A program made the position numbers and the translations under genes. Shown here one piece after another: positions 8,576-53,508 of a stretch of DNA of 64,000 nucleotides. The notes beneath the pieces were generated by a model, which was not told the origin of the DNA, searched no databases, and worked only from the letters and a program-made list of their open reading frames with translations. The DNA is from Chromatiales bacterium (GTDB lineage Bacteria > Pseudomonadota > Gammaproteobacteria > JAJPIJ01). The stretch covers positions 1,565 through 65,564 of the forward strand of contig JBQTIC010000003.1 of NCBI GenBank assembly GCA_052388435.1. Direction: 5' to 3'. Each line of letters begins with the position of its first letter. Within the stretch, counting starts at the first letter, position 1.

Positions 8576-8782
8576 ATGGCAGAGGAAAGAACGAAATCCA
8601 TTCAGAAGCGGATAATGGAGTTGCAGATTGAGCACCGCGACCTGGATGAGATTGTGACCCGCCTGTCGCAGGATCCCCTGGTCGATCAGTTGCAGCTCAC
8701 CAGGCTCAAAAAGCGCAAGCTGCTGCTGAAGGACCAGATTTCGAGACTGAAAAGCCAACTCATACCGGATCTGGACGCCTAA
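8576..8782 (+). CDS. DUF465 / YdcH-like small coiled-coil protein
   Basis: 68 aa. MAEERTKSIQKRIMELQIEHRDLDEIVTRL... matches the YdcH family. A purine-rich RBS precedes it. Confidence 0.7.
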   Translation: MAEERTKSIQKRIMELQIEHRDLDEIVTRLSQDPLVDQLQLTRLKKRKLLLKDQISRLKSQLIPDLDA

Positions 8783-8841: not shown

Positions 8842-11283
8842 ATGGACAAACAGGATCAAGACTTTCAACAGCTGGTGAGGTTGCTGATCCCGGTCAACGG
8901 CCTGGCCCCCACTTTCCAGGATCAAATCATCAAGGAATCCGAGATTCTCACGTTCCGCAAGCGCGACTACGTCTTCCACCAGGGCAGCCGCGACAGCTAC
9001 ACCTATTACTTGCTGGAAGGCACGCTGGAGTTGATCGCCAGCGATCAGATCATCAAGCAAATCGATGGCGGCACGGGTCCCGCGTTCTTCCCCGTCGCCC
9101 AGCTGCAGCCGCGGCAGATGTCGGCGAAGGCAACCACTCCGGTCACGGTGCTGCGCGTCAACCGCGTCCTGCTCGACAAGCTGCTCAGCCTTGCCAGCGA
9201 ACCCATCTCGCAGGACGGCAACAAGTCAGGCATCGAGGTGGAGGTGATCGACGGCGGCGATGCCGATTGGGTAGGTAGCCTCCTGCAGTCGGAGCTGTTC
9301 TCACGGGTGCCCGCCTCCAATATCTCCAAGCTGCTCTCGACCATCGAGTCGGTTGCCTACGTCTCCGGCGATGTGGTGGTGCGCCAGGGAGATGTTGGCG
9401 ACTACTATTACCTCATCCGGTCAGGCCGCTGCGAGGTGCTGCGCAACACCAGCAGCGGTCAGGAGATCCGCCTCGCCGAACTCGAGGCCGGCGACAGCTT
9501 CGGTGAAGAGGCGCTGGTCTCAGACTCCCGCCGCAATGCCACCATACGCATGTTGGCTGACGGCGCCCTGCTGCGGCTCACCAAGGACGACTTTATCAAC
9601 CTCATCAAGAACCCGCTCGTCCAGAGTGTCACCTACGAGCAGGGTCGGGAGCTGGCGAAAGGCGGCGCAATGTGGCTGGACGTGCGCTTCCGGGACGAGC
9701 ACGCACAGTCCAGCATCCCCGGCAGCCTGAACATGCCCCTCAACGCGCTGCGCACCCAGTATGACAAGCTCGACCCAGCCAAGCACTACATCGCCTACTG
9801 TGACACCGGCAGTCGCAGTTCGGTGGCCGCCTTCCTGCTTACCGAGCGCGGACGCGACGCCAGCTACCTCGACGGTGGTTACATCCGCTATCTCGCGCCG
9901 CCCGCTGCTCCATCAGTGGCGGAACCTGTCCCGCCCGCCCGTGAGAAGCCCAAGGCGGCGCCTCTGCTCGTGCCCGCCCGCGTGCCGACGGGCACGCCGA
10001 TCCCGACCACCTCCGTCGCTGACACCACTGAGGCGGAGGTACGCGTCTCGACACTGAAGGCCGAGCTGGCGCGGGCCAGTATGCAAATTGAGGAGGCGCG
10101 CCGTCTGCAGGCGGAAGCCGAGGCCGCCAAGGTCGCTGCGGAGAAGGCGATGGAGGAGCGCGTCCGTATCGAGCGCGAGAAGCTGGAGGCGGAAGCGCGC
10201 AAGGCAGCAGAGTTCCTCAGTGAAGCGAAAAGGTTGAAGACCGCTATCGAGAACCAGAAGCGCGCTGCCGAGCAGGAGGCCGAGCGCCAGCGGCGCCAGC
10301 AGGAGGAGCACTTGCAGCGGCTCAAGCGCGAGGCCGAGCAGCGCCTGGAGGCCCAAAAGCGGCGGCTTGAAGAGCTCTACCGCAAGAACGCCGAGGAGCT
10401 GGAGCGCATCCAGTCCATGAAGGCGCACGCCGAGGTCATGCTCGCCGCCGACCGCAAGAAGCTCGAAAGCGAGACCCGCAAGCAACTGGAAGCGGCCCGT
10501 GCCGTGCTCGCCGAACAACAGGAGCAGGAACGCAAAGCCCGCGAAGAGAATGAGGCGCGGCTGGCCGACGAGAGGCGCAAGATCGAGGTCGAGTTCGTGC
10601 GTAACACGGCCATGCTCGAGCTGGTGCAGCAGGAGAAGGCCGCGGCGGCGGCGGCACGGCGCGCCGCCGCCGAAGAGGCCGAGGAGATCATCGCCGAGTA
10701 CCGCAGCGAGCATGAACGTGCGCGTGCCCAGGAACAGGCCCGGCTGCAACAAGAGGTCCGGCAGCTGGAGGAGGAGCGCCAGCGATTGAAGGCCGCCACC
10801 GAGGACGCGCGTAAGGCCCGCGAGGAGGCCGAGTCGATGCAGCGCCGGGCACAGGCGCAGCTCATCGCCTTACGGCAGCTCGAGGAGGAGCGGGTCGACC
10901 GCGCGGCAAATCACATCCAGGTCGACATCCGTGCCGTGGAGGCGGAGGCAGCCGCCGCGGCCAAGCGTCTGCGCGACGCGGTGATGATTGAGGAACGCCT
11001 GGAGGAGGAACGCGCCACCAACGAAAAGCGCGTCGAGCAGACCTTCAATCAGCAGGTGCAGCTGCGCGCGCAGCTTGAACAGGACCTGGCAGAGTGGATC
11101 GCCGAGCAGGACCAGCAGACCGCACGCACGAGCAGGCGTCCCGGCCGCTCGAAGGCCTCGCAGGCGGATCGCATCAAGCGAAAGGCGCGGGAGGCGCGCA
11201 TCCGCACGCAGTTGCATGATCTGTACTTGCTCGAGGAGCTGGCGACGGCGATGAACCAGACACTGACCACCAAGGGCTCGTGA
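8842..11283 (+). CDS. 813-aa multidomain protein. Two cyclic-nucleotide-binding (CAP effector) domains, a rhodanese domain with a CxxGxR active-site cysteine, a Pro-rich linker, and a roughly 450-aa E/R/K/A-rich helical (single-alpha-helix or coiled-coil) tail
   Basis: Domain motifs read directly. cNMP domain 2 has GDSFGEEAL ... RRNATIRM. The rhodanese domain has HYIAYCDTGSRSS. The tail is a monotonous ER/K heptad-like sequence. Confidence 0.8.
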   Translation: MDKQDQDFQQLVRLLIPVNGLAPTFQDQIIKESEILTFRKRDYVFHQGSRDSYTYYLLEGTLELIASDQIIKQIDGGTGPAFFPVAQLQPRQMSAKATTPVTVLRVNRVLLDKLLSLASEPISQDGNKSGIEVEVIDGGDADWVGSLLQSELFSRVPASNISKLLSTIESVAYVSGDVVVRQGDVGDYYYLIRSGRCEVLRNTSSGQEIRLAELEAGDSFGEEALVSDSRRNATIRMLADGALLRLTKDDFINLIKNPLVQSVTYEQGRELAKGGAMWLDVRFRDEHAQSSIPGSLNMPLNALRTQYDKLDPAKHYIAYCDTGSRSSVAAFLLTERGRDASYLDGGYIRYLAPPAAPSVAEPVPPAREKPKAAPLLVPARVPTGTPIPTTSVADTTEAEVRVSTLKAELARASMQIEEARRLQAEAEAAKVAAEKAMEERVRIEREKLEAEARKAAEFLSEAKRLKTAIENQKRAAEQEAERQRRQQEEHLQRLKREAEQRLEAQKRRLEELYRKNAEELERIQSMKAHAEVMLAADRKKLESETRKQLEAARAVLAEQQEQERKAREENEARLADERRKIEVEFVRNTAMLELVQQEKAAAAAARRAAAEEAEEIIAEYRSEHERARAQEQARLQQEVRQLEEERQRLKAATEDARKAREEAESMQRRAQAQLIALRQLEEERVDRAANHIQVDIRAVEAEAAAAAKRLRDAVMIEERLEEERATNEKRVEQTFNQQVQLRAQLEQDLAEWIAEQDQQTARTSRRPGRSKASQADRIKRKAREARIRTQLHDLYLLEELATAMNQTLTTKGS

Positions 11284-13325: not shown

Positions 13326-13826
13326 TCACTCATCCACAGCGAGCCGTTCGAGCCCGCCCTGCGGGCAGGCCTGCAGCAGATGCTTGATGGGACCTTTTCC
13401 CGGGACGATCAGACCGGCGTCGAGTTCGGCGAGCGGATAGAGGACAAAGGCACGCTCGGCGATCCCGGGGTGCGGGACCGTCAGCCGCCCATCGCTGATT
13501 TGCCGCTCACCGTACAGGAGCAGATCGAGGTCGAGCGTGCGCGGTCCCCATCGCGTCGGGCCACGGACGCGACCGTGGGCGCGCTCGATTGCCAGCAGCG
13601 CATCCAGCAGTGCATGCGGCATCAAAGCGGTGTCCAGCGCGGCCGCCGCGTTGATGTAGTCGGGCTGATCAGGCGGTCCCATCGGGTCCGACCTGTAGAG
13701 CGAAGAGCGCGCCACTAACGCCGTTTGCGGTAGCGCCGCAAGCTCTTCCAGGGCGCGCCATACCTGCTCGCGCGGTGCCTCCAGATTGCTGCCCAGCCCG
13801 ATATAGGCGCGAACTGTGTCAACCAC
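13326..13826 (-). CDS. folK: 2-amino-4-hydroxy-6-hydroxymethyldihydropteridine pyrophosphokinase
   Basis: YIGLGSNL...RWGPRTLDLDLLLYG HPPK signature. The probable GTG start at 13826 overlaps the pcnB stop. The pcnB-folK synteny is conserved. Confidence 0.8.
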   Translation of the reverse strand: MVDTVRAYIGLGSNLEAPREQVWRALEELAALPQTALVARSSLYRSDPMGPPDQPDYINAAAALDTALMPHALLDALLAIERAHGRVRGPTRWGPRTLDLDLLLYGERQISDGRLTVPHPGIAERAFVLYPLAELDAGLIVPGKGPIKHLLQACPQGGLERLAVDE

Positions 13827-15162
13827 GCCGCGCGCCCGGGTCTCCTTCCCTGCTCTTTCGCCGGCGTCCACGCCGGCGGCCCTGACGCGGCAGCTCAGAT
13901 AGCATCTGCGCGCGGTTCTTCTCGCTCTCATCCTGAAAGCGCGTCCACCAATCGCCCGCCTCCGCGAGTGTCTCTCCGGCTTCCTGGCGCAGCAGCAGGA
14001 AGTCATAAGCGGCGCGGAAACGCGGATGTGCCAGCAGGCGCAATGCCGCCTTCGGCGAGGGTTGCTCGAGACGCCACTGCAACGACCAGATCTCCCGCGT
14101 CACCTGGGTGAAGCGTCGCGGCACCGCCACGCGCGCCGCCTGCCGCGAAATAACGTCGTCCTGGGCAAGCTCCATAGCCAGTGCCGTGGCGTGCCCCTGC
14201 GCGAGGTATTGCTGCATGCGTCGCCGCAGCGGTGCCCACAGCAGTGCCGCGAAGAGGAAGGCGGGGGTTACCGGCTTGTCCTCGGCGAGTCGCCGGTCCG
14301 TGTTCTCCAACGCGCGGATGAGCAGCATCTTGGGAAATCCCTGCATCTCCTCGGCGAGCGCATCTTCCACATCCGGAAACAGATGGCCGAAAAGACGGTA
14401 GTGGCGCAGCCGCTCGAAGGTGGCGAGGGCGAAACCGCCGAGGAACAGCTTCAGGACTTCCTCGAAGAGACGGGCCGAGGGGATCTGATCCAGTAGCTGC
14501 CCCATTTCGAGCAATGGCCTTTCGGTGTCCGCATGAATATTCAGCCCGAGCTTCACCGCGAAGCGCACGGCACGCAGCAGTCGCACCGGGTCCTCACGGA
14601 AACGAGCCATTGGGTCACCGATGAGCCGGAGCTGGCCTGCCTGGATGTCGGCCATGCCGCCGACATAGTCGACAACGGTGAAATCCGCGATGTTGTAGTA
14701 AAGCGCATTGATGGTGAAATCGCGCCGCCAGACGTCGTCCTCGACGCTGTGACCATAGACGTTGTCGCGCAGGATGCGACCACCCTCCGTTACCCGCTCG
14801 CCCCCCGAGCCTTCGTCGTCGCCCGCGCGGAAGGTAGCCACCTCGATGATCTCCTGGCCGAAGTGCACGTGCGCGAGGCGGAAGCGGCGGCCAATGAGGC
14901 GGCAGTTCCTGAACAGCTCGCGCACTTGTTCGGGGCGCGCGTTGGTCGCGACGTCGAAATCCTTCGGCTCCCTCCCGAGCAGCAAGTCGCGCACGCTGCC
15001 GCCGACCAGATACGCCTGGTAGCCGGCGTTATGCAGGCGGTAGAGCACCTTCAACGCATGCTCGGAAACGTTCGCGCGGGAGATGCAGTGATCCGCGCGC
15101 GGGATGATGCGCGGCGCAGTAGCGAGCCGGATGACTTTGGAGGCCGCCAGATTATCGGTCAT
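13819..15162 (-). CDS. pcnB: poly(A) polymerase I
   Basis: 447 aa. Nucleotidyltransferase GGSVRDLLLG...DFDV motif and the RNA-binding C-terminus are present. Confidence 0.9.
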   Translation of the reverse strand: MTDNLAASKVIRLATAPRIIPRADHCISRANVSEHALKVLYRLHNAGYQAYLVGGSVRDLLLGREPKDFDVATNARPEQVRELFRNCRLIGRRFRLAHVHFGQEIIEVATFRAGDDEGSGGERVTEGGRILRDNVYGHSVEDDVWRRDFTINALYYNIADFTVVDYVGGMADIQAGQLRLIGDPMARFREDPVRLLRAVRFAVKLGLNIHADTERPLLEMGQLLDQIPSARLFEEVLKLFLGGFALATFERLRHYRLFGHLFPDVEDALAEEMQGFPKMLLIRALENTDRRLAEDKPVTPAFLFAALLWAPLRRRMQQYLAQGHATALAMELAQDDVISRQAARVAVPRRFTQVTREIWSLQWRLEQPSPKAALRLLAHPRFRAAYDFLLLRQEAGETLAEAGDWWTRFQDESEKNRAQMLSELPRQGRRRGRRRKSREGDPGARRG

Positions 15163-15285
15163 CGGCCGGCGTATGGGTCAGGAGGGAAGGACACGATGTT
15201 TCATCAGAAAGATGACGCAACAAAACCGGACAGACGCTAAGAATGTTTATGATAACATCCTTGCCTCCTGCAGACCCTCCGTCAC

Positions 15286-15361
15286 GCTCCCTTCGTCTAG
15301 TGGCCCAGGACGTCGCCCTCTCACGGCGAAAACAGGGGTTCGACTCCCCTAGGGAGCGCCA
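15286..15361 (+). tRNA. tRNA-Glu (anticodon CUC)
   Basis: 76 nt with a 7-bp acceptor stem (GCTCCCT/AGGGAGC), a GTTCGACTCC T-arm and a CCA end. It is near-identical in architecture to E. coli tRNA-Glu. The anticodon loop CTCTCAC gives CUC. Confidence 0.85.
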
Positions 15362-15509
15362 TCGCTCCCCCGGTTTTCCAGTCCGACCGCGACCGCTGTT
15401 AGGTCGGACGCAGGCGCGCCAGCGCCGCGCTGTGCGTCCCGGCACGCCCCGCACCCAGGGTCGCTGCATGGCGGTTTCACGCCCGTGGGTTGATGCGGTG
15501 ATGAGACAA

Positions 15510-15529
15510 CCTCCGCCCGATGACGGAGG
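15510..15529 (+). promoter_or_regulatory. hairpin (CCTCCG / cccgatga / CGGAGG) whose 3' arm contains the ccmA Shine-Dalgarno sequence
   Basis: Perfect 6-bp inverted repeat read directly. The GGAGG lies 3 to 9 nt upstream of the two candidate ccmA ATGs. Confidence 0.4.
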
Positions 15530-15532
15530 GTA

Positions 15533-16180
15533 ATGCCCATGCTCGAAGGTCATGATCTTGAGTGCGCGCGCGGGGAGCGCCTGCTTTTCCGCGCGCTCAC
15601 GCTGCGCGTGGAAGCGGGCACGCTGCTGCGCGTGGCCGGACCAAACGGGAGCGGCAAGACGAGTCTGCTGCGCCTTCTGTGCGGGCTGTTGCAGCCGACG
15701 CACGGGCTGGTGCGCTGGCGCGGCAGTAACATCCGCGTACTCAGGGAAGACTATTGGCGCGAGATCGCCCATATCGGTCATCTGAACGGCATCAAGGACG
15801 ACCTCACCGCCTTGGAGAATCTGCGCACATCGGCCACCATCGCGGGCCTGACCTCGGATGAGGGGGCCGCGCGCGCAGCGCTCGCTGATCTTGGACTGGC
15901 CGGCTGCGAGCATACGCTCGCGCGCCGCCTCTCGTTGGGACAGCGGCGACGCATCGCGCTGGCACGGCTGTTTTTGAGCGGCAGCATCCCGCTGTGGATC
16001 CTCGATGAGCCCTTCACTGCCCTCGATGCGCGCGGCCTCGCAGCGCTCTGTGCGCGCATCGGCGAACATCTGGCGGCCAGCAATATCGTGTTGCTGACCA
16101 CCCATCTGGATGTGCCCATCAAGGCGCCAGCGACACGGCTCCTGACCCTTGGGGGCAACGGCAACTACGCGACATGCTGA
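15533..16180 (+). CDS. ccmA: heme exporter ATP-binding protein CcmA
   Basis: Aligns to E. coli CcmA (MGMLEARELLCERDERTLF...). Walker A GPNGSGKTS. The start may instead be the second ATG at 15539, which has better SD spacing. Confidence 0.85.
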   Translation: MPMLEGHDLECARGERLLFRALTLRVEAGTLLRVAGPNGSGKTSLLRLLCGLLQPTHGLVRWRGSNIRVLREDYWREIAHIGHLNGIKDDLTALENLRTSATIAGLTSDEGAARAALADLGLAGCEHTLARRLSLGQRRRIALARLFLSGSIPLWILDEPFTALDARGLAALCARIGEHLAASNIVLLTTHLDVPIKAPATRLLTLGGNGNYATC

Positions 16181-16842
16181 AGACGCTCGTAGCCGTCCTG
16201 CGCCGCGATCTCTTGCTCGCGGCGCGCCAGCGCGCGGATGTCCTGAACACATTCCTCTTTTTCGTCGTCGTCGTCACGATCGTGCCTCTCGGCGTCGGTC
16301 CTGACTCTGATTTGCTGCGCGCCATCGCTCCGGGCGTTGTGTGGGTGGCGGCGCTGCTCGCCGCGATTCTTTCGCTGCACCGGCTGTTCGCGGCGGACTT
16401 TGCCGACGGCACCCTCGAACAGATGCTGCTGTCCGCCGAGCCGCTGACGGTGATCGTCCTTGGCAAAACGGCGGCCCACTGGCTGGTCACCGGCCTGCCG
16501 GTTACGCTGATATCTTCCCTGCTCGGCGCCATGTTCGGTCTCGGCCCCGCAGCGATAACGACGCTGGTCGCCTCGCTGGCCCTAGGCACACCAGTACTGT
16601 CCCTTATCGGCGCCGTAGGGGCGGCCCTGACGCTATCGCTGCGAGGTGGTGGCGTGCTAATCTCGTTGCTTGTTCTGCCCCTGTACGTGCCCGTGCTGAT
16701 CCTCGGGTCGGGCGCGGTAGAGGCCACTGCGGCGGGGCTGGACGGTACACCCTACCTGCTCTTACTCACGGCGCTGACGCTGCTGGCGGTCGTTCTCACG
16801 CCCTGGGCCGTGTCGGCGGCGCTACGAATCTCCGTGGAGTAA
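16174..16842 (+). CDS. ccmB: heme exporter permease CcmB
   Basis: Aligns to CcmB along its length (ARIAPGVVWVAALLA..., GTPVLSLIGAVGAALT). It overlaps the ccmA stop. Confidence 0.9.
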   Translation: MLKTLVAVLRRDLLLAARQRADVLNTFLFFVVVVTIVPLGVGPDSDLLRAIAPGVVWVAALLAAILSLHRLFAADFADGTLEQMLLSAEPLTVIVLGKTAAHWLVTGLPVTLISSLLGAMFGLGPAAITTLVASLALGTPVLSLIGAVGAALTLSLRGGGVLISLLVLPLYVPVLILGSGAVEATAAGLDGTPYLLLLTALTLLAVVLTPWAVSAALRISVE

Positions 16843-41038: not shown

Positions 41039-42463
41039 TTACAGCCTGACCATCACATGCCGCACTGTGGTGTAGTCCTCCAGCGCATACATCGACAGAT
41101 CCTTGCCGTAACCGGATTGCTTGTAGCCGCCATGCGGCATCTCCGCGCACAGCATGAAGTGGGTATTGATCCACGTGCAGCCGTACTGGAGATGCGCGGC
41201 AACCTGCATCGCCTTGCCGATGTCCTTGCTCCAGACTGACGAGGCAAGCCCGTAGTCGGAATCGTTGGCCCAGGCAACGGCCTGCCCCGCGTCATCGAAG
41301 CGCGTGACGGATACCACCGGGCCGAAGACCTCCTTGCGCACGATCTCGTCCTCCTGCCGCGCACCGGCAATGACTGTGGGCTCGTAGAAGAACCCGCCGC
41401 CCGCAACCACCTTGCCGCCAGTGACGACCTCTACGTGCTTCATCGCCGCCGCGCGCTCGACGAAACCCGCGACCCTTTCGCGCTGCCTGCTACTTATGAG
41501 TGGACCGATATCCACGTCCTCCTCCTCCGGCTGCCCGAATCTAATTCCCTTGGCTGCTGCGCCCAGATCGGCCACCAGCTTCTCGTAGATCCTGTTGCCG
41601 GCATAGATGCGGCAGGCCGCGGTACAGTCCTGGCCAGCATTGTAGTAGCCGAAAACGCGAACGCCCTGGACGACCTCCTGCAGGTCCGCGTCGTCGAAGA
41701 CAATGACCGGCGCCTTACCACCCAACTCAAGATGCGTGCGCTTGATGCTCTTCGAGGCTGCCTCCAGGACCTTCTGGCCGGTCGCGATGCTGCCGGTGAG
41801 CGAGATCATTTTCACGCCCGGATGGTTGATGAGGGTGGTGCCGACAGAATCGCCGATGCCCGTGACCACATTCAGCACGCCTGGCGGCAGGATGTCGCTG
41901 GCCAGCTCGGCGAGCTTCAGCGTCGTGAGGGGCGTCTGCTCCGAGGGTTTAAGCACGATCGTGTTGCCGGCGCCGATGGCGGGCGCCATTTTCCACGCCG
42001 CCATCATGAGCGGGTAGTTCCACGGCGCTATGGAACCCACGACCCCGATGGGGTCGCGGCGGATCATGCTGGTGAGCCCCGGCAGGTACTCGTCGGCGGC
42101 GCTGCCGGTCATGCAGCGCACTGCGCCGGCGAAGTAGCGGAATACATCGACGATGGCCGGTATCTCGTCGCCCAGTGCTTTGGCATAGGGCTTGCCGCAG
42201 TTCTGCGACTCCAGGCGCGCGAAGGCCTCGCCCTGCGCCTCAATGGCATCCGCAAGCTTGAGCAGCATGAGCGAGCGCTCCTGCGGCGTTGTGCGCGACC
42301 AAGTCAGGAACGCTCGTGCCGCGGCCGCAACTGCCTGATCGATCTGCGCGCCGCTTGCCTGCGGCACCTTCACGAGCACATCCCCGCGTGCAGGATTGAG
42401 CACCTCGTAGTCCGCGCCCGCCCCTTTCACCATCTTGCCGTCAACCAGCATTTGCGTGTTCAT
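41039..42463 (-). CDS. patD: gamma-aminobutyraldehyde dehydrogenase
   Basis: Near full-length alignment to E. coli PatD/YdcW (ESRNCGKP...[63 protein letters not shown]). The start is taken at MNTQMLVDG. Confidence 0.85.
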
Positions 42464-42501
42464 CGCGTCTCTCTCCTGGGTTTCAATGTCAAGTCGCTCG
42501 A

Positions 42502-43317
42502 TCATTTGCCGGCGCCCGCGACCGATTCGGTTCCGCGGGTCAGGTAGAAGGCGAGCAGGATGGGCACGAACGTCACCGCGATCACGAACACCGCGACGAC
42601 GTTGGTGACCGGCCGCTGCCGCGGCCGCACCAGTTCCTCGAGCATCCAGATCGGCAGTGTCGCGTTCTGCCCCGCCGTGAACGTCGTGACGATCACCTCA
42701 TCAAAGGATAGCGCGAAGGCGAGCATTCCGCCTGCGAGCAGGGCGGTAGCGATGTTGGGTAGCACGACGTAGCGGAAGGTCTGGAACCCGTCGGCACCGA
42801 GGTCCATCGATGCCTCTACGAGCGACGCCGAGGTGCGGCGGAAGCGGGCGATGACATTGTTGTACACCACCACGACACAGAAAGTGGCATGGCCAAGGAT
42901 GATGGTCCAGATGCTGAAGGGGACTCCCAAGAGATTGAACGCCGAGCGCAGCGAGATGCCGGTGACAATGCCGGGCAGCGCGATGGGCAGGATGAGCAGC
43001 AGGGAGATAGTTTCGCGGCCGAAGAATCGGCCGCGATACACTGCGGCCGCCGCCAGCGTCCCCAGCACCAGCGCGACGCCGGTTGCCACAGCGGCAACCC
43101 GCAGCGACAGCGTGAGCGCCTGCCAGACATCCGCGCGCTGCCAGGTGACGGCAAACCAACTAAGCGTTAACCCTGGCGGTGGGAAGACGTAGGACTTGTC
43201 TTCGGTGGTAAAGGCATATAGCAGTATGAGCATGAGCGGCAGGTGCAGAAACAACAGGCCGGCAACGGCGGTGAGCTTCAGTCCATAGGTGGCGCCGGCC
43301 GCAGCCTTAGAGCGCAC
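42502..43317 (-). CDS. polyamine-type ABC transporter permease (PotC-like)
   Basis: Six-TM ABC permease of the PotC family. It overlaps patD and the potB-like gene. Confidence 0.85.
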
Positions 43318-47077: not shown

Positions 47078-48577
47078 TTAATGGGTCAGATTGACCCACG
47101 TGGTCTTGAGCTCCACGTACTTGTCGATAGCGTGCAGCCACTTGTCGCGGCCGAAGCCCGGCTGCTTGTCGCCGCCGAACGGCACTGTCATGTCGCCCTC
47201 ATCGAGACAGTTGATCCACACCGTGCCAGCCCGTAGCCGCCGCGCCATTTCGTGCGCGGTGCGAAGGTTGCCCGTCCATACCGCCGCCGCAAGACCGTAA
47301 ATGGTGTCGTTGGCGATCGCCACGGCTTCCTCGAGGTCGGTGAAGGTCAGCGTAGACAAGACCGGACCGGAAATCTCCTCGCGGGCTATGGTCATGGCTG
47401 GTTTGACCTCGTCGAACACGGTCGGGGCGACGTAGTAACCGCCGGTATCCTGCCGCACACGCTTGCCGCCGAGGCGCAGGCGCGCGCCTTCACCCTTGCC
47501 GGATTTCACGTAGCGCAGGATGGTGTTCATCTGGGCATCATCGACGATGGCGCCAAGCCGCGACTCTGGATCTAGGGGGTCGCCAGGCTGAAGCCGCCTG
47601 CCCGCCGCCAGCACCTTCTCCACAAACTGATCCTTGATTCGCGTCTGCACCAACAGACGCGAATCCGCTGAACACATCTCGCCCTGATTGAAGAACATGG
47701 CCCAGGCGGCCTGCGCGGCGACGTCGAGGTTAGGGCAGTCGGCGAGCACGATGTTCGGCGTCTTGCCGCCGCATTCAAGCCACACCCGCTTCATGTTCGA
47801 TTGGCCGGCGTACTGCAGCATCAGACGCCCCACACGTGTCGAGCCAGTGAACGCAACGCAATCGACATCGTCATGAAGACCGAGTGCCTTGCCAGCGGTA
47901 TCACCAAATCCAGGCACCACGTTGAACACCCCTTCTGGCATCCCGGCCTCGGCGGCCAGTTCGGCGACGCGTACGGCGGTGAGCGGTGACTTCTCCGAGG
48001 GCTTCAGCACCACGCTGTTGCCGACTGCCAGCGCCGGACCAATCTTCAATGCCGCCATCAGCAGCGGGAAATTCCAAGGCACGATGGCGGCGACCACGCC
48101 GAGCGGTTCGCGCGTGATCAGTCCCAGGGACTCCGGCCCCGTCGGGGCAAGTTCGCCTGGAAGTTTGTCGAGGGACTCGCCGTACCAGTTGATGCAGTGG
48201 GCGGCGCCCGGTATGTCGACGGTAGCGCTGTCGGCGATGGGCTTGCCCATATCCAGTGTCTCCAGCAACGCCAGCTCATCGATATGGGCGCGGATATTCT
48301 CGGCCAAACGGATGAGAGTCTGTTTGCGCTGCGCGGGCGGCATCCGCGACCAGACCCCCGCCTTGAAGCTGCGCCGCGCTGCGGCCACCGCGCGATCGAC
48401 GTCTTCCGCCTCGCAGGCCGCGACGGTCGTGAGCACCTGTCCGTCGATAGGGCTGATGCAGTCGAACACCTTGCCGGAGGCGGATGCGACGTACCTGCCA
48501 TCGATGAACGCCGGCCCGTGGAAGTGCATCGTCTCGCGCAGCTTGGTCCAGTATTCGTGCGGCTTGGGGTGTGACAT
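47078..48577 (-). CDS. puuC: gamma-glutamyl-gamma-aminobutyraldehyde dehydrogenase
   Basis: Aligns along its length to E. coli PuuC (LALLETLD.GKPI, VPWNFPLL, VLKPSEKSPL, NMKRVWLE.GGK, DMTVPFGG.KQSG.GRDK). Confidence 0.85.
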   Translation of the reverse strand: MSHPKPHEYWTKLRETMHFHGPAFIDGRYVASASGKVFDCISPIDGQVLTTVAACEAEDVDRAVAAARRSFKAGVWSRMPPAQRKQTLIRLAENIRAHIDELALLETLDMGKPIADSATVDIPGAAHCINWYGESLDKLPGELAPTGPESLGLITREPLGVVAAIVPWNFPLLMAALKIGPALAVGNSVVLKPSEKSPLTAVRVAELAAEAGMPEGVFNVVPGFGDTAGKALGLHDDVDCVAFTGSTRVGRLMLQYAGQSNMKRVWLECGGKTPNIVLADCPNLDVAAQAAWAMFFNQGEMCSADSRLLVQTRIKDQFVEKVLAAGRRLQPGDPLDPESRLGAIVDDAQMNTILRYVKSGKGEGARLRLGGKRVRQDTGGYYVAPTVFDEVKPAMTIAREEISGPVLSTLTFTDLEEAVAIANDTIYGLAAAVWTGNLRTAHEMARRLRAGTVWINCLDEGDMTVPFGGDKQPGFGRDKWLHAIDKYVELKTTWVNLTH

Positions 48578-52014: not shown

Positions 52015-53508
52015 ATGAAGCAGCTTGGACATTACATCGGCGGGGTACCCGTCGCCGGGACGGGAGGCCGCTCGGCCAATGTCTACAATCCCGCCACCGG
52101 CGAAGTCGCGGGGCAGTTGGCATTGGCCAGCGCGGCCGAGACAGAAGCGGCGATTGTCGCGGCCGCAGCCGCCCTGCCGGCTTGGGCGGAGACTACACCG
52201 CTGGCGCGCGCGCGCATCCTGTTCCGGCTCAAGACGCTCATCGAAGAGCACGCCGAGGAGTTGACCGCCCTCATCACCGCCGAGCACGGCAAGATCTTAA
52301 GTGATGCGCGCGGGGAGCTGACACGGGGCCTGGAGGTCGTGGAGTTCGCCTGTGGCATTCCGCATCTGCTCAAAGGCGAGTTTTCCGAAAGCGTAGGAAC
52401 CGACGTCAACAGCTGGTCCATCCGCCAGCCGGTGGGCGTCTGCGCCGGAATTACTCCCTTCAACTTCCCGTGCATGGTGCCCATGTGGATGTTCCCCGTC
52501 GCCATCGCCTGCGGCAACACCTTCGTGTTGAAGCCTTCCGAGCGCGACCCTTCACCGTCGCTGCGGCTCGCGCAGCTGCTGACGGAGGCAGGCTTGCCGG
52601 ATGGCGTGTTCAACGTGATCAACGGCGACAAGGAGGCGGTCGACACGCTCCTGCGTGACCCGCGTGTCGCGGCCGTGAGCTTCGTGGGTTCCACCCCAGT
52701 TGCCGAATACATCTATGCGGAGGGCTGCCGGAATGGCAAGCGCGTGCAGGCACTTGGGGGCGCGAAGAACCACATGGTCATCATGCCGGACGCCGATCTG
52801 GAGCTTGCCGTCAATGCCTTGATGGGCGCGGCGTACGGATCAGCAGGCGAGCGCTGCATGGCGATCTCCGTCGGGGTGGCGGTCGGCGAGGCGGCCAACC
52901 GCCTCATCGATAAGCTGGCGCCGCGCGTGCGCGCTCTCCAGCTCGGCTCCGGGATCGACGCCGGCGCGGAGATGGGACCCTTGGTGACGGGGGAGCACCG
53001 CGACAAGGTCGCCCGGTATGTCGACAGCGGCGTCAAGGAGGGCGCAACACTGGTGGTGGACGGGCGTGGCGTAAAGGTACCGGGTCATGAACAGGGTTTC
53101 TTCCTCGGCGGCTGCCTGTTCGATCACGTCACGCCGCAGATGCGCATCTACCGCGACGAGATCTTTGGACCGGTGCTGTCCATTGTGCGGGTGCCCGATC
53201 TCGGAGCAGCCGTCGACCTGGTGAACCGCCATGAGTACGGCAACGGCACTGCCATCTTTACGCGCGACGGCGACTGTGCCCGCCGTTACACCCAGCGCAT
53301 TGAAGCTGGGATGGTGGGAGTGAATGTGCCGATCCCGGTGCCAATGGCGTTCCACAGCTTCGGGGGCTGGAAGCGATCACTGTTTGGCCCGCTGCATGTG
53401 CACGGGCCGGACGGCGTGCGTTTCTACACGCGGCTGAAGACGGTGACATCGCGCTGGCCCCGCAGCGCAGGCCAGCGCGCTGATTTCTCCATGCCAACGA
53501 TGAAGTAG
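52015..53508 (+). CDS. mmsA: CoA-acylating methylmalonate/malonate-semialdehyde dehydrogenase
   Basis: 497 aa ALDH fold with the MmsA N-terminus (NPATGEV...) and FTGST..G, GERCMA motifs. Confidence 0.9.

Follow-up and report, generated by a model that had tools for sequence, protein, structure and literature searches.

The 64,000-nucleotide stretch of DNA analysed here (the window) comes from a Chromatiales bacterium (GenBank assembly GCA_052388435.1, contig JBQTIC010000003.1, positions 1,565 to 65,564 of the forward strand) and encodes an 813-residue protein that joins two cyclic-nucleotide-binding (CNB) domains, a rhodanese domain, a Pro-rich linker and a long helical stalk. An earlier note on this DNA had placed the open reading frame (ORF) at 8842–11283, and these coordinates proved exact (forward strand, ATG start; Table 1). 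A 100% identical public protein, P0001 (from a metagenome-assembled genome, MAG, of a Chromatiales bacterium), is annotated at 802 residues; its start lies 11 codons 3' of the ATG, which skips window positions 8842–8874. Because the first 11 residues of the 813-residue form are kept in the homologues P0002, P0003 and P0005 (59–82% identity), the ATG at 8842 is better supported than the public start. The genes of the window, including gshB, hemC, panC, panB, folK, pcnB, a TonB-like gene, ccmF, valS and pepA, are those of an ordinary core chromosome, and no sign of a mobile element was found among them.

Table 1. Features of the target gene, its protein and the adjacent DNA (positions are those of the window; CNB, cyclic-nucleotide-binding; AF2, AlphaFold2; pLDDT, predicted local distance difference test score; HMM, hidden Markov model)
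Feature	Residues	Position	Strand	Basis or remark
Target ORF, 813 aa, complete, ATG start	1-813	8842..11283	+	CNB1-CNB2-rhodanese-Pro-rich linker-helical stalk
CNB1	15-118	8884..9195	+	AF2 beta-sandwich, pLDDT ~90; divergent, highly conserved cassette
CNB1 pseudo-phosphate-binding cassette, AFFPVAQLQPRQMSA	81-95	9082..9126	+	Conservation and hhalign
CNB1-CNB2 linker	119-140	9196..9261	+	pLDDT <50 for 121-138; mean top-residue frequency 0.34
CNB2, canonical; N-terminal helix with W143 (253/255), C197 (229/255)	141-259	9262..9618	+	
CNB2 phosphate-binding cassette, FGEEALVSDSRRNAT	220-234	9499..9543	+	Conservation
Rhodanese domain	260-350	9619..9891	+	PF00581; pLDDT 93-98; directly after CNB2 C-terminal helix
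Rhodanese active-site loop, C320-D-T-G-S-R325-S326	320-326	9799..9819	+	Conservation
Pro/Ala-rich disordered linker	351-395	9892..10026	+	pLDDT 35-52; top-residue frequency 0.29; length variable
Helical stalk, 418 aa, five helices	396-813	10027..11280	+	AF2 DSSP, pLDDT ~75-87 in helices
Stalk block a, 'EAEVRVSTLKAELARA..QIEEARRL'	396-433	10027..10140	+	Top-residue frequency 0.71 for 401-420
Repeat-type unit, ~100 aa	441-541	10162..10464	+	2-8 copies in longer paralogues (block HMM)
Stalk block b, 'ERRKIEVEFVRNTAMLE...AAEEAEEIIAEY'	570-625	10549..10716	+	Top-residue frequency 0.69-0.79
C-terminal helix, 'RIKRKAREA...HDLYLLEELA'	769-811	11146..11274	+	Candidate anchor/docking element
DUF465 (YdcH-family) gene, 68 aa, candidate operon partner		8576..8782	+	PF04325, E 2.3e-14
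Longest antisense ORF, 279 aa, within stalk-coding region, considered non-coding		9913..10752	-	
Antisense ORF, 162 aa, in stalk-coding region		10377-10865	-	
Antisense ORF, 145 aa, in stalk-coding region		9888-10325	-	
Antisense ORF, 115 aa, in stalk-coding region		10870-11217	-	

Domains of the head and the stalk

A Pfam scan recovered both of the domain types that had been read from the sequence. The cNMP_binding family (PF00027) matched two stretches (E 2.7e-31, 107.8 bits against a gathering cut-off of 27.5; best stretch residues 172–256) and Rhodanese (PF00581) matched residues 270–347 (E 7.1e-15, 55.7 bits against 22.2). Both families are present in 120/120 best homologues, which are 466–1,183 residues long. 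The AlphaFold2 model of this N-terminal part (the head; 69-sequence alignment, mean pLDDT 88.2, predicted template-modelling score (pTM) 0.57) consists of two beta-sandwich CNB domains with a disordered linker between them, followed by an alpha/beta rhodanese. Conservation of head residues was counted over the 255 family members with a complete head, to which the counts below refer.

The second CNB domain, CNB2, had been called canonical from its motifs, and these are present and almost invariant. In its phosphate-binding cassette F220 and G221 occur in 255/255 members, E222 in 254, R231 in 247, N232 and A233 in 251 each, and Thr or Ser at position 234 in 240. CNB2 has all the residues required for binding a 3',5'-cyclic nucleotide, both the Gly-Glu pair that contacts the ribose 2'-OH and the Arg and Ser/Thr that contact the phosphate, whereas CNB1 lacks the Gly-Glu part. 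The likely ligand of CNB2 is a 3',5'-cyclic nucleotide, in bacteria probably cAMP, although the invariant Asn232 agrees with neither the Ala of domains of the protein kinase A (PKA) type nor the Thr of those of the cGMP-dependent protein kinase (PKG) type.

The first domain, CNB1, had been described as a degenerate CAP-ED domain, which agrees with the alignment: hhalign matches it to CNB2 with a probability of 95.5% (E 1.5e-8), so that its homology to CNB domains is real, but of the binding residues it keeps the phosphate-binding Arg and has lost the Gly-Glu pair. R91 and S94 align to R231 and T234 of CNB2, and the counterpart of G221-E222 is A81 and a variable residue. The pseudo-cassette is itself strongly conserved (P90 and R91 each in 253/255, Ser or Thr at position 94 in 249/255, A95 in 240/255), and the motif 'LAQLQPRQ.SA' is nearly invariant. 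Because the Gly-Glu pair is lost yet this motif is almost invariant, the CNB1 site is clearly under selection for some role other than the binding of a cyclic nucleoside monophosphate (cNMP). Since the ribose-binding pair is absent, CNB1 is probably a docking or regulatory domain, or the binder of a different ligand.

A phmmer search of Protein Data Bank (PDB) sequences returned, for CNB2, PKG (6.7e-30) and the PKA regulatory subunit, PKA-R (~1e-16). Foldseek aligned both CNB domains to the tandem CNB-A/B domains of PKA-R and PKG (E ~1e-19 to 1e-17, 260–290 columns); with the full-length model it returned nothing beyond these CNB matches. Matches in NCBIfam (CRP, Pat, encapsulin 2B, PspE, GlpE, ThiI-C and MoeB) are at the level of domains only, all well under the equivalog cut-offs.

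In the rhodanese domain, an intact CxxGxR cysteine loop had been noted; it is present and nearly fixed across the family (C320 249/255, D321 239, G323 250, R325 245, S326 244), and D280 and R282 occur in 255/255. The domain has what defines a catalytic-type rhodanese, namely a Cys that opens a six-residue loop ending in Arg and an upstream D-x-R (D280/R282). Among PDB sequences, its matches are the rhodanese domains of the coenzyme A (CoA)-persulfide reductase 8a56 (1.7e-11) and the CoA-disulfide reductase (CoADR) 3icr. Only two cysteines occur in the 813 residues, C197 in CNB2 (229/255) and C320. In 6/255 members (P0094, P0158, P0196, P0212, P0198 and P0231) Ser stands in place of C320 and the rest of the architecture is kept.

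The CNB2 helix at residues 248–259 runs into the rhodanese strand at 261–263 with almost no spacer, and pLDDT is 84–98 across the junction. Because the C-terminal helix of CNB2 leads straight into the rhodanese in the model, we infer that the rhodanese sits where the lid of a CNB domain normally lies, which is the usual route of CNB allostery.

The linker that follows was rightly recognised as Pro-rich; it is poorly conserved and modelled as disordered. The remainder of the protein is modelled (full-length pTM 0.32) as five helices of 38–135 residues, at 396–433, 441–541, 549–683, 689–764 and 769–811, with short breaks between them. No transmembrane (TM) segment was found in the stalk (KD19 maximum 1.01), the last 450 residues have no Pfam match even at E<=1, and the stalk has no relative among PDB sequences at E<=0.1. 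A search with the tail only against a word index of 5.8 billion proteins gave one match, its candidate list being filled by compositionally similar sequences.

Three parts of the stalk stand out by conservation. Residues 401–420 and 581–620 match globular domains in this respect. L405, A412 and A419 are invariant in block a, as are R578, A609 and I617 in block b, which is single-copy in 193/211 family members of 701–1000 residues. In the C-terminal helix R777 is invariant and I778, A782, A785 and L796 are nearly so; the ending 'RIK..A....HD..LL.E' is present in most tailed homologues. W752, R578 and R777 are invariant in an alignment of 33 sequences with 39–83% identity. These conserved blocks suggest specific docking and a stalk that is more than a neutral spacer.

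Variation in length within the family (up to ~1,350 residues with a tail of the target type) stems from duplication of a unit of ~50–100 residues that matches residues 441–541. Internal repeats were tested with block HMMs and a shuffle control; a BLAST self-comparison was dropped, as shuffled tails scored ~85 bits without composition correction. In long members, extra copies of the unit reach 14–49 bits, where shuffled sequences score no higher than 5.6; the target stalk has one clear copy, and its extra copies, at 5–6 bits, do not rise above this background. Insertions in the alignment coincide with the predicted helix breaks, which would fit growth of the stalk at hairpin tips.

Relatives, paralogues and neighbouring genes

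An exhaustive HMMER search with the head (residues 1–372) gave 1,355 clusters at 50% identity (E<=1e-30), and at least 554 relatives were confirmed when a single genome was scanned for each GTDB species. Among the relatives listed, nearly all belong to uncultured Gammaproteobacteria; carriers include Chromatiales, Ectothiorhodospiraceae, Thiohalomonadaceae, Thiogranum, Thiohalobacter, Sedimenticola, Granulosicoccaceae and a Lamellibrachia symbiont. The head begins within the first 30 residues in 255/255 members. Public annotation of homologues is limited to 'cyclic nucleotide-binding domain-containing protein' or 'CRP-like cAMP-binding protein'. Literature searches found neither a description of a CNB-CNB-rhodanese protein nor a characterized member, in line with the earlier note, which knew of no characterized protein with this organization.

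In most family members the head is joined to a stalk of the target type; it is also found alone, on long tails of other kinds, and in long proteins that end in an FGE-sulfatase domain. Stand-alone heads of 339–359 residues without a stalk are found at ~20 loci (for example L050, L055, L058, L068 and L076; L and P numbers are our identifiers for loci and proteins). Judged by these contexts, the CNB-CNB-rhodanese head is a reusable cassette and the conserved functional unit. The stand-alone heads adjoin a convergent tatD-pilZ-holB-tmk block (names read from the sequences).

The FGE-ended relatives, 1,100–1,800 residues long, comprise the head, a region of 500–1,200 residues and a C-terminal FGE-sulfatase domain (PF03781, SUMF1-like, E ~1e-53 to 1e-56); they include L041:9974-14788, L060:4494-9917, L065:9956-13270 and proteins at L037, L042, L043, L059 and L061. 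In 8/9 of these proteins one TM-like peak lies 130–250 residues before the FGE domain, and L061 has none. This implies a putative membrane-anchored form with a periplasmic FGE domain. Because this class combines the head with a long region and a TM-like peak, comparison with it suggests that a cytoplasmic head, a long stalk and a C-terminal anchor may be a common design.

Still other tails were seen. L074:9968-15682 (gamma proteobacterium endosymbiont of Lamellibrachia) and L075 (Chromatiales MAG) encode proteins of ~1,900 residues with the same head; their tails of ~1,500 residues have no Pfam match and end in '...GKRRYSLGGLFKKK'. Another Pfam-unmatched form, at L072, has 1,593 residues and one TM-like peak.

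Upstream of the target gene and co-directional with it lies a gene of the DUF465 family, which ends 59 nt before the target start. It scores 53.5 bits against PF04325 (gathering cut-off 25) and falls below the cut-off of the E. coli-type equivalog PRK11415 (21.6 against 91). No terminator-like site was found on the forward strand between the two genes. A DUF465 homologue (54–81% identity) lies 8–235 nt upstream and co-directional in 19/78 loci, and divergent in 2 more; 17 positions are invariant among 18 aligned sequences. This linkage is found in the hemC...panC context of the window, between head-to-head paralogues, and beside a B-type paralogue alone. Because it persists in three different genomic contexts, it argues for a functional link between DUF465 and the target family within the subclade. 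A search of the literature on DUF465 returned nothing functional.

Head-to-head pairs of paralogues occur in 14/78 loci (L004–L007, L011–L013, L015–L017, L020–L022 and L029) and also in two long-read chromosomes; L079–L081 are likewise paired loci. The layout is a longer B-type copy and a spacer of ~450 bp, then DUF465 and an A-type copy that diverge from B. The window has the A-type copy only. These pairs suggest possible hetero-oligomers and a shared divergent control region.

Neighbours that recur besides DUF465, some of them named from our own reading of the sequences, reflect subclade synteny: MoxR-type AAA+, VWA_CoxE, PilZ, YajQ, DUF3301 and an M16 peptidase. Of these, MoxR/VWA, PilZ and YajQ belong to the clade with paralogue pairs. 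Clustering of the neighbourhoods revealed no cyclase, phosphodiesterase or sulfur-relay gene consistently linked to the target family. The genes on either side of the paired-paralogue unit in L079, L080 and L081 are a YajQ-family gene, a PilZ-domain gene and a MoxR-type AAA+/VWA_CoxE pair. YajQ and PilZ are nucleotide- or cyclic-di-GMP-binding families, and these flanks may be mere synteny or a second-messenger neighbourhood.

At the DNA level, no sigma-70-like promoters, forward-strand terminators or Rfam families were found around the target gene. The coding DNA had been described as repetitive, and this was given as the source of long antisense ORFs. It contains no tandem repeats, only codon-level direct matches of 15–31 nt; the long antisense ORFs do exist, but they arise from GAG/GCC/CAG/CGC codon bias rather than from repeats. 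Antisense stop-free runs reach 318 codons, the G+C content at third codon positions (GC3) of the sense frame is 0.84, and homology backs the sense frame only. Such antisense ORFs could mislead gene callers.

Elsewhere in the window, a region of ~12 kb contains three paralogous aldehyde dehydrogenases (PF00171), all full-length (41039–42505 and 47078–48577 on the reverse strand, 52015–53508 on the forward strand). An ORF of 366 residues (15152–16252, reverse strand) overlaps the start of the pcnB-like gene (13819–15162, reverse strand) by 11 nt; it has no Pfam match at E<=1e-5 and is partly conserved in L001 and L002.

Possible functions and the nature of the tail

We tentatively favour a model, to which we give a little less than an even chance, in which the head is a cNMP-gated rhodanese carried on an anchored or oligomerizing stalk. 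The target would be a soluble cytoplasmic cyclic-nucleotide receptor whose head is a CNB tandem like that of PKA-R and PKG. Binding of a 3',5'-cyclic nucleotide by CNB2 would cause a hinge movement that repositions the fused rhodanese, and this could gate the loading of C320 with a persulfide or its onward transfer. The stalk would probably form oligomers, either of itself or, where a paralogue is present, with that paralogue, and these may be coiled coils or helical bundles. We propose that blocks a and b, together with the C-terminal helix, dock the protein and so keep the head at a particular partner or location, the leading candidate partner being the helical DUF465 protein, which is putatively co-transcribed. 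The cNMP-regulated sulfur-transfer or scaffolding function suggested in the earlier note would likewise agree with the residue conservation. The model is supported by strong purifying selection on the functional residues in the 255 members; in it we infer which nucleotide is bound, catalysis by the rhodanese, its coupling to CNB2, the oligomeric state and all of the partners.

Several observations weigh against this proposal. DUF465 is linked to the target family in only 21/78 loci and is no universal partner; the idea that it resembles part of the stalk, on account of 'LDEI..L' in both, was rejected (hhalign probability 0.1%). The rest of the neighbourhood is housekeeping and varies between subclades. 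The orientation of the domains is uncertain, with pTM at 0.57 for the head and 0.32 for the full-length protein. Finally, rhodanese domains with an intact Cys can serve as redox or sulfane-sulfur sensors and not as transferases.

The last point leads to the main rival of the gated-carrier model, which we consider unlikely: a two-input sensor scaffold in which C320, perhaps jointly with C197, would act as a thiol switch responding to redox state, sulfide or sulfane sulfur. The thiol signal would be combined with the cNMP level to control assembly of the stalk, localization or partner binding. The presence of just two cysteines in the whole protein, both of them conserved, is consistent with such a switch, as is the absence of TusA, DsrE or a desulfurase from the conserved neighbours. 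The carriers are mostly from sulfur-oxidizer lineages (Chromatiales, Ectothiorhodospiraceae, Thiohalomonadaceae, Thiogranum, Sedimenticola and the tubeworm symbiont), although this bias may be mere phylogeny. However, the full CxxGxR[ST] loop and D280/R282 are kept as in catalytic rhodaneses. The six natural C320S variants with intact architecture count against the sensor too, and are predicted by neither model.

A structural role is also conceivable, with the target as a coiled-coil-rich cytoskeletal or polar-organizing protein of the crescentin, FilP or CCRP (coiled-coil-rich protein) type, its stalk self-assembling and its head acting as a regulatory cap. The long amphipathic helical region, the repeat units that expand in paralogues and the head-to-head pairs, which suggest hetero-oligomers, would fit this role, as would the reported polar localization of the cAMP-binding protein CbpA (see below). 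It is weakened, however, because stand-alone heads exist: a head that is found alone and on quite different stalks is a conserved functional unit in its own right, and conservation peaks in the head rather than in the stalk. We regard this explanation as improbable.

The tail itself was first described as a long ER/K-rich helix, either a stable single alpha-helix (SAH) or a rigid spacer like TolA domain II. Its helical nature and approximate length stand, as it is all-helical in the AlphaFold2 model over ~420 residues, but 'ER/K-rich' is an overstatement. The composition is 18.9% Ala, 18.9% Glu, 14.6% Arg, 9.5% Gln, 8.6% Leu and 6.2% Lys with a net charge of -2; Glu, Lys and Arg together make up 40%, the large hydrophobics (LIVMFYW) 19%, and Ala plus hydrophobics 38%. 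In ER/K SAHs, Glu, Lys and Arg are typically well over 60%, and there is no hydrophobic seam. The target stalk instead has a coherent hydrophobic periodicity of 3.6 residues (power 9.8 against 2.8+-1.2 in shuffles, reached by 0/500 shuffles), four breaks between its five helices and sequence-specific conserved blocks. The high content of Glu, Arg, Lys and Ala does recall an SAH, and short stretches at ~479–520 have 54–57% charged residues and many i/i+4 pairs of opposite charge. For TolA, the tail has neither a TM anchor nor a match to TolA or any other Pfam family. Both the SAH and the TolA-like spacer are disfavoured and very unlikely; from its model and periodicity, the stalk is predicted to be an amphipathic, segmented coiled coil or helical bundle.

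That the ORF joins two or more genes through a frameshift or misassembly has nothing for it except the unusual architecture and the origin of the window from a MAG, and is excluded because the architecture recurs, complete, in 120/120 top homologues, at least 554 species genomes, 1,355 clusters at 50% identity and long-read chromosomes, and the head is N-terminal across the family; the gene is, on this comparison, genuine, and the fusion artefact that the earlier note had allowed for has a negligible probability.

Taking the gated-rhodanese model further, the target may belong to a new class of cyclic-nucleotide effectors in bacteria. These would be persulfide carriers, gated by cAMP or cGMP and mounted on an anchored helical stalk, that act together with DUF465, with or without a paralogous subunit, and couple the level of a second messenger to the local supply or detection of sulfane sulfur in sulfur-oxidizing and related Gammaproteobacteria. 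The FGE-ended membrane-anchored relatives would then be a transmembrane version. We offer this extended proposal as speculation, and think it rather unlikely in its full form. To our knowledge, few bacterial effectors of cAMP or cGMP besides CRP-type transcription factors are known. If true, the proposal would describe an output of cyclic-nucleotide signalling that is both post-translational and widespread, and that would be the first to work by sulfur-transfer or thiol chemistry; the join between CNB and rhodanese domains may tie second-messenger signalling to sulfur chemistry. Most carriers are environmental Gammaproteobacteria that have not been cultured, many of them sulfur-cycling, which may account for the family being unstudied. 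For DUF465, candidacy as a partner of the target is a possible first functional lead. The alternative C-termini (none, helical stalk, or stalk with TM segment and FGE-sulfatase domain) amount to natural experiments on the role of the head, and the natural C320S variants could help to separate catalytic from structural roles.

Relation to known systems

By sequence and by structure alike, the target head is matched best by the CNB-A/CNB-B tandems of PKA-R and PKG (PDB 1cx4, 4z07, 5j3u and 5dyk), which share its fold, its domain order and the canonical FGE...R.AT of CNB2, yet identity is only 14–21%. Unlike them, the target is bacterial, has neither an inhibitor sequence nor a kinase, lacks Gly-Glu in CNB1, and continues into a rhodanese and a stalk. 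Orthology to PKA-R or PKG was rejected, as the target lacks a kinase domain and Pfam matches nothing in it beyond CNB and rhodanese. A transcription factor of the CRP/FNR type, as the JGI name 'CRP-like cAMP-binding protein' would have it, was likewise rejected: no HTH_Crp or other DNA-binding Pfam family was found at E<=1. The CRP equivalog matches the CNB region only (39.9 bits against a cut-off of 266).

The nearest functional analogy to the target known to us is CbpA (PA4704) of Pseudomonas aeruginosa, a non-transcriptional cAMP-binding protein that Endoh and Engel reportedly described in 2009. It is reported to combine a degenerate CNB/CAP domain with a canonical one and to localize to the cell pole in a cAMP-dependent manner. 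By this description, CbpA and the target are alike in not being of the transcription-factor type and in the pairing of their CNB domains. CbpA is, however, a small protein that lacks the rhodanese and the stalk of the target. A review (PMC11139211) cites the work on CbpA.

The rhodanese domain shares its fold, the six-residue C-x-x-G-x-R loop and the upstream D-x-R with the single-domain catalytic rhodaneses GlpE and PspE and with the C-terminal rhodanese domains of CoA-persulfide and CoA-disulfide reductases (8a56 and 3icr). It differs from them in its setting, with a CNB domain on one side and a stalk on the other. Assignment to named rhodanese equivalogs was rejected on score (PspE 23.7 against a cut-off of 102, GlpE 14.4 against 102, ThiI_C 31 against 70, MoeB 31.1 against 449).

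CNB domains have been met before in a system that handles sulfur: family 2B encapsulin shell proteins carry a cNMP-binding insertion and are related to the sulfur-storing desulfurase encapsulins, and rhodaneses are co-encoded in that system (PMC10836720). The match of the target to NCBIfam encap_f2b is weak and confined to the CNB part (6.2e-9, 35.5 bits against a cut-off of 400). Unlike these encapsulins, the target lacks the HK97 shell fold, and no desulfurase lies close to it.

With TolA domain II, ER/K SAHs and bacterial coiled-coil-rich proteins the target has in common an extended helical region, charged and rich in Ala, of the kind that serves as a spacer or scaffold. The target differs from TolA in having no TM anchor and no C-terminal TolA domain (no TolA-related match in Pfam or NCBIfam), and from SAHs in composition and hydrophobic periodicity. 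Its FGE-ended sister proteins have Pfam positions in the head nearly identical to those of the target and none of its stalk blocks. Set beside these systems, the target is a union of known signalling and sulfur-carrier domains, joined in an uncharacterized but widespread architecture with a conserved small partner.

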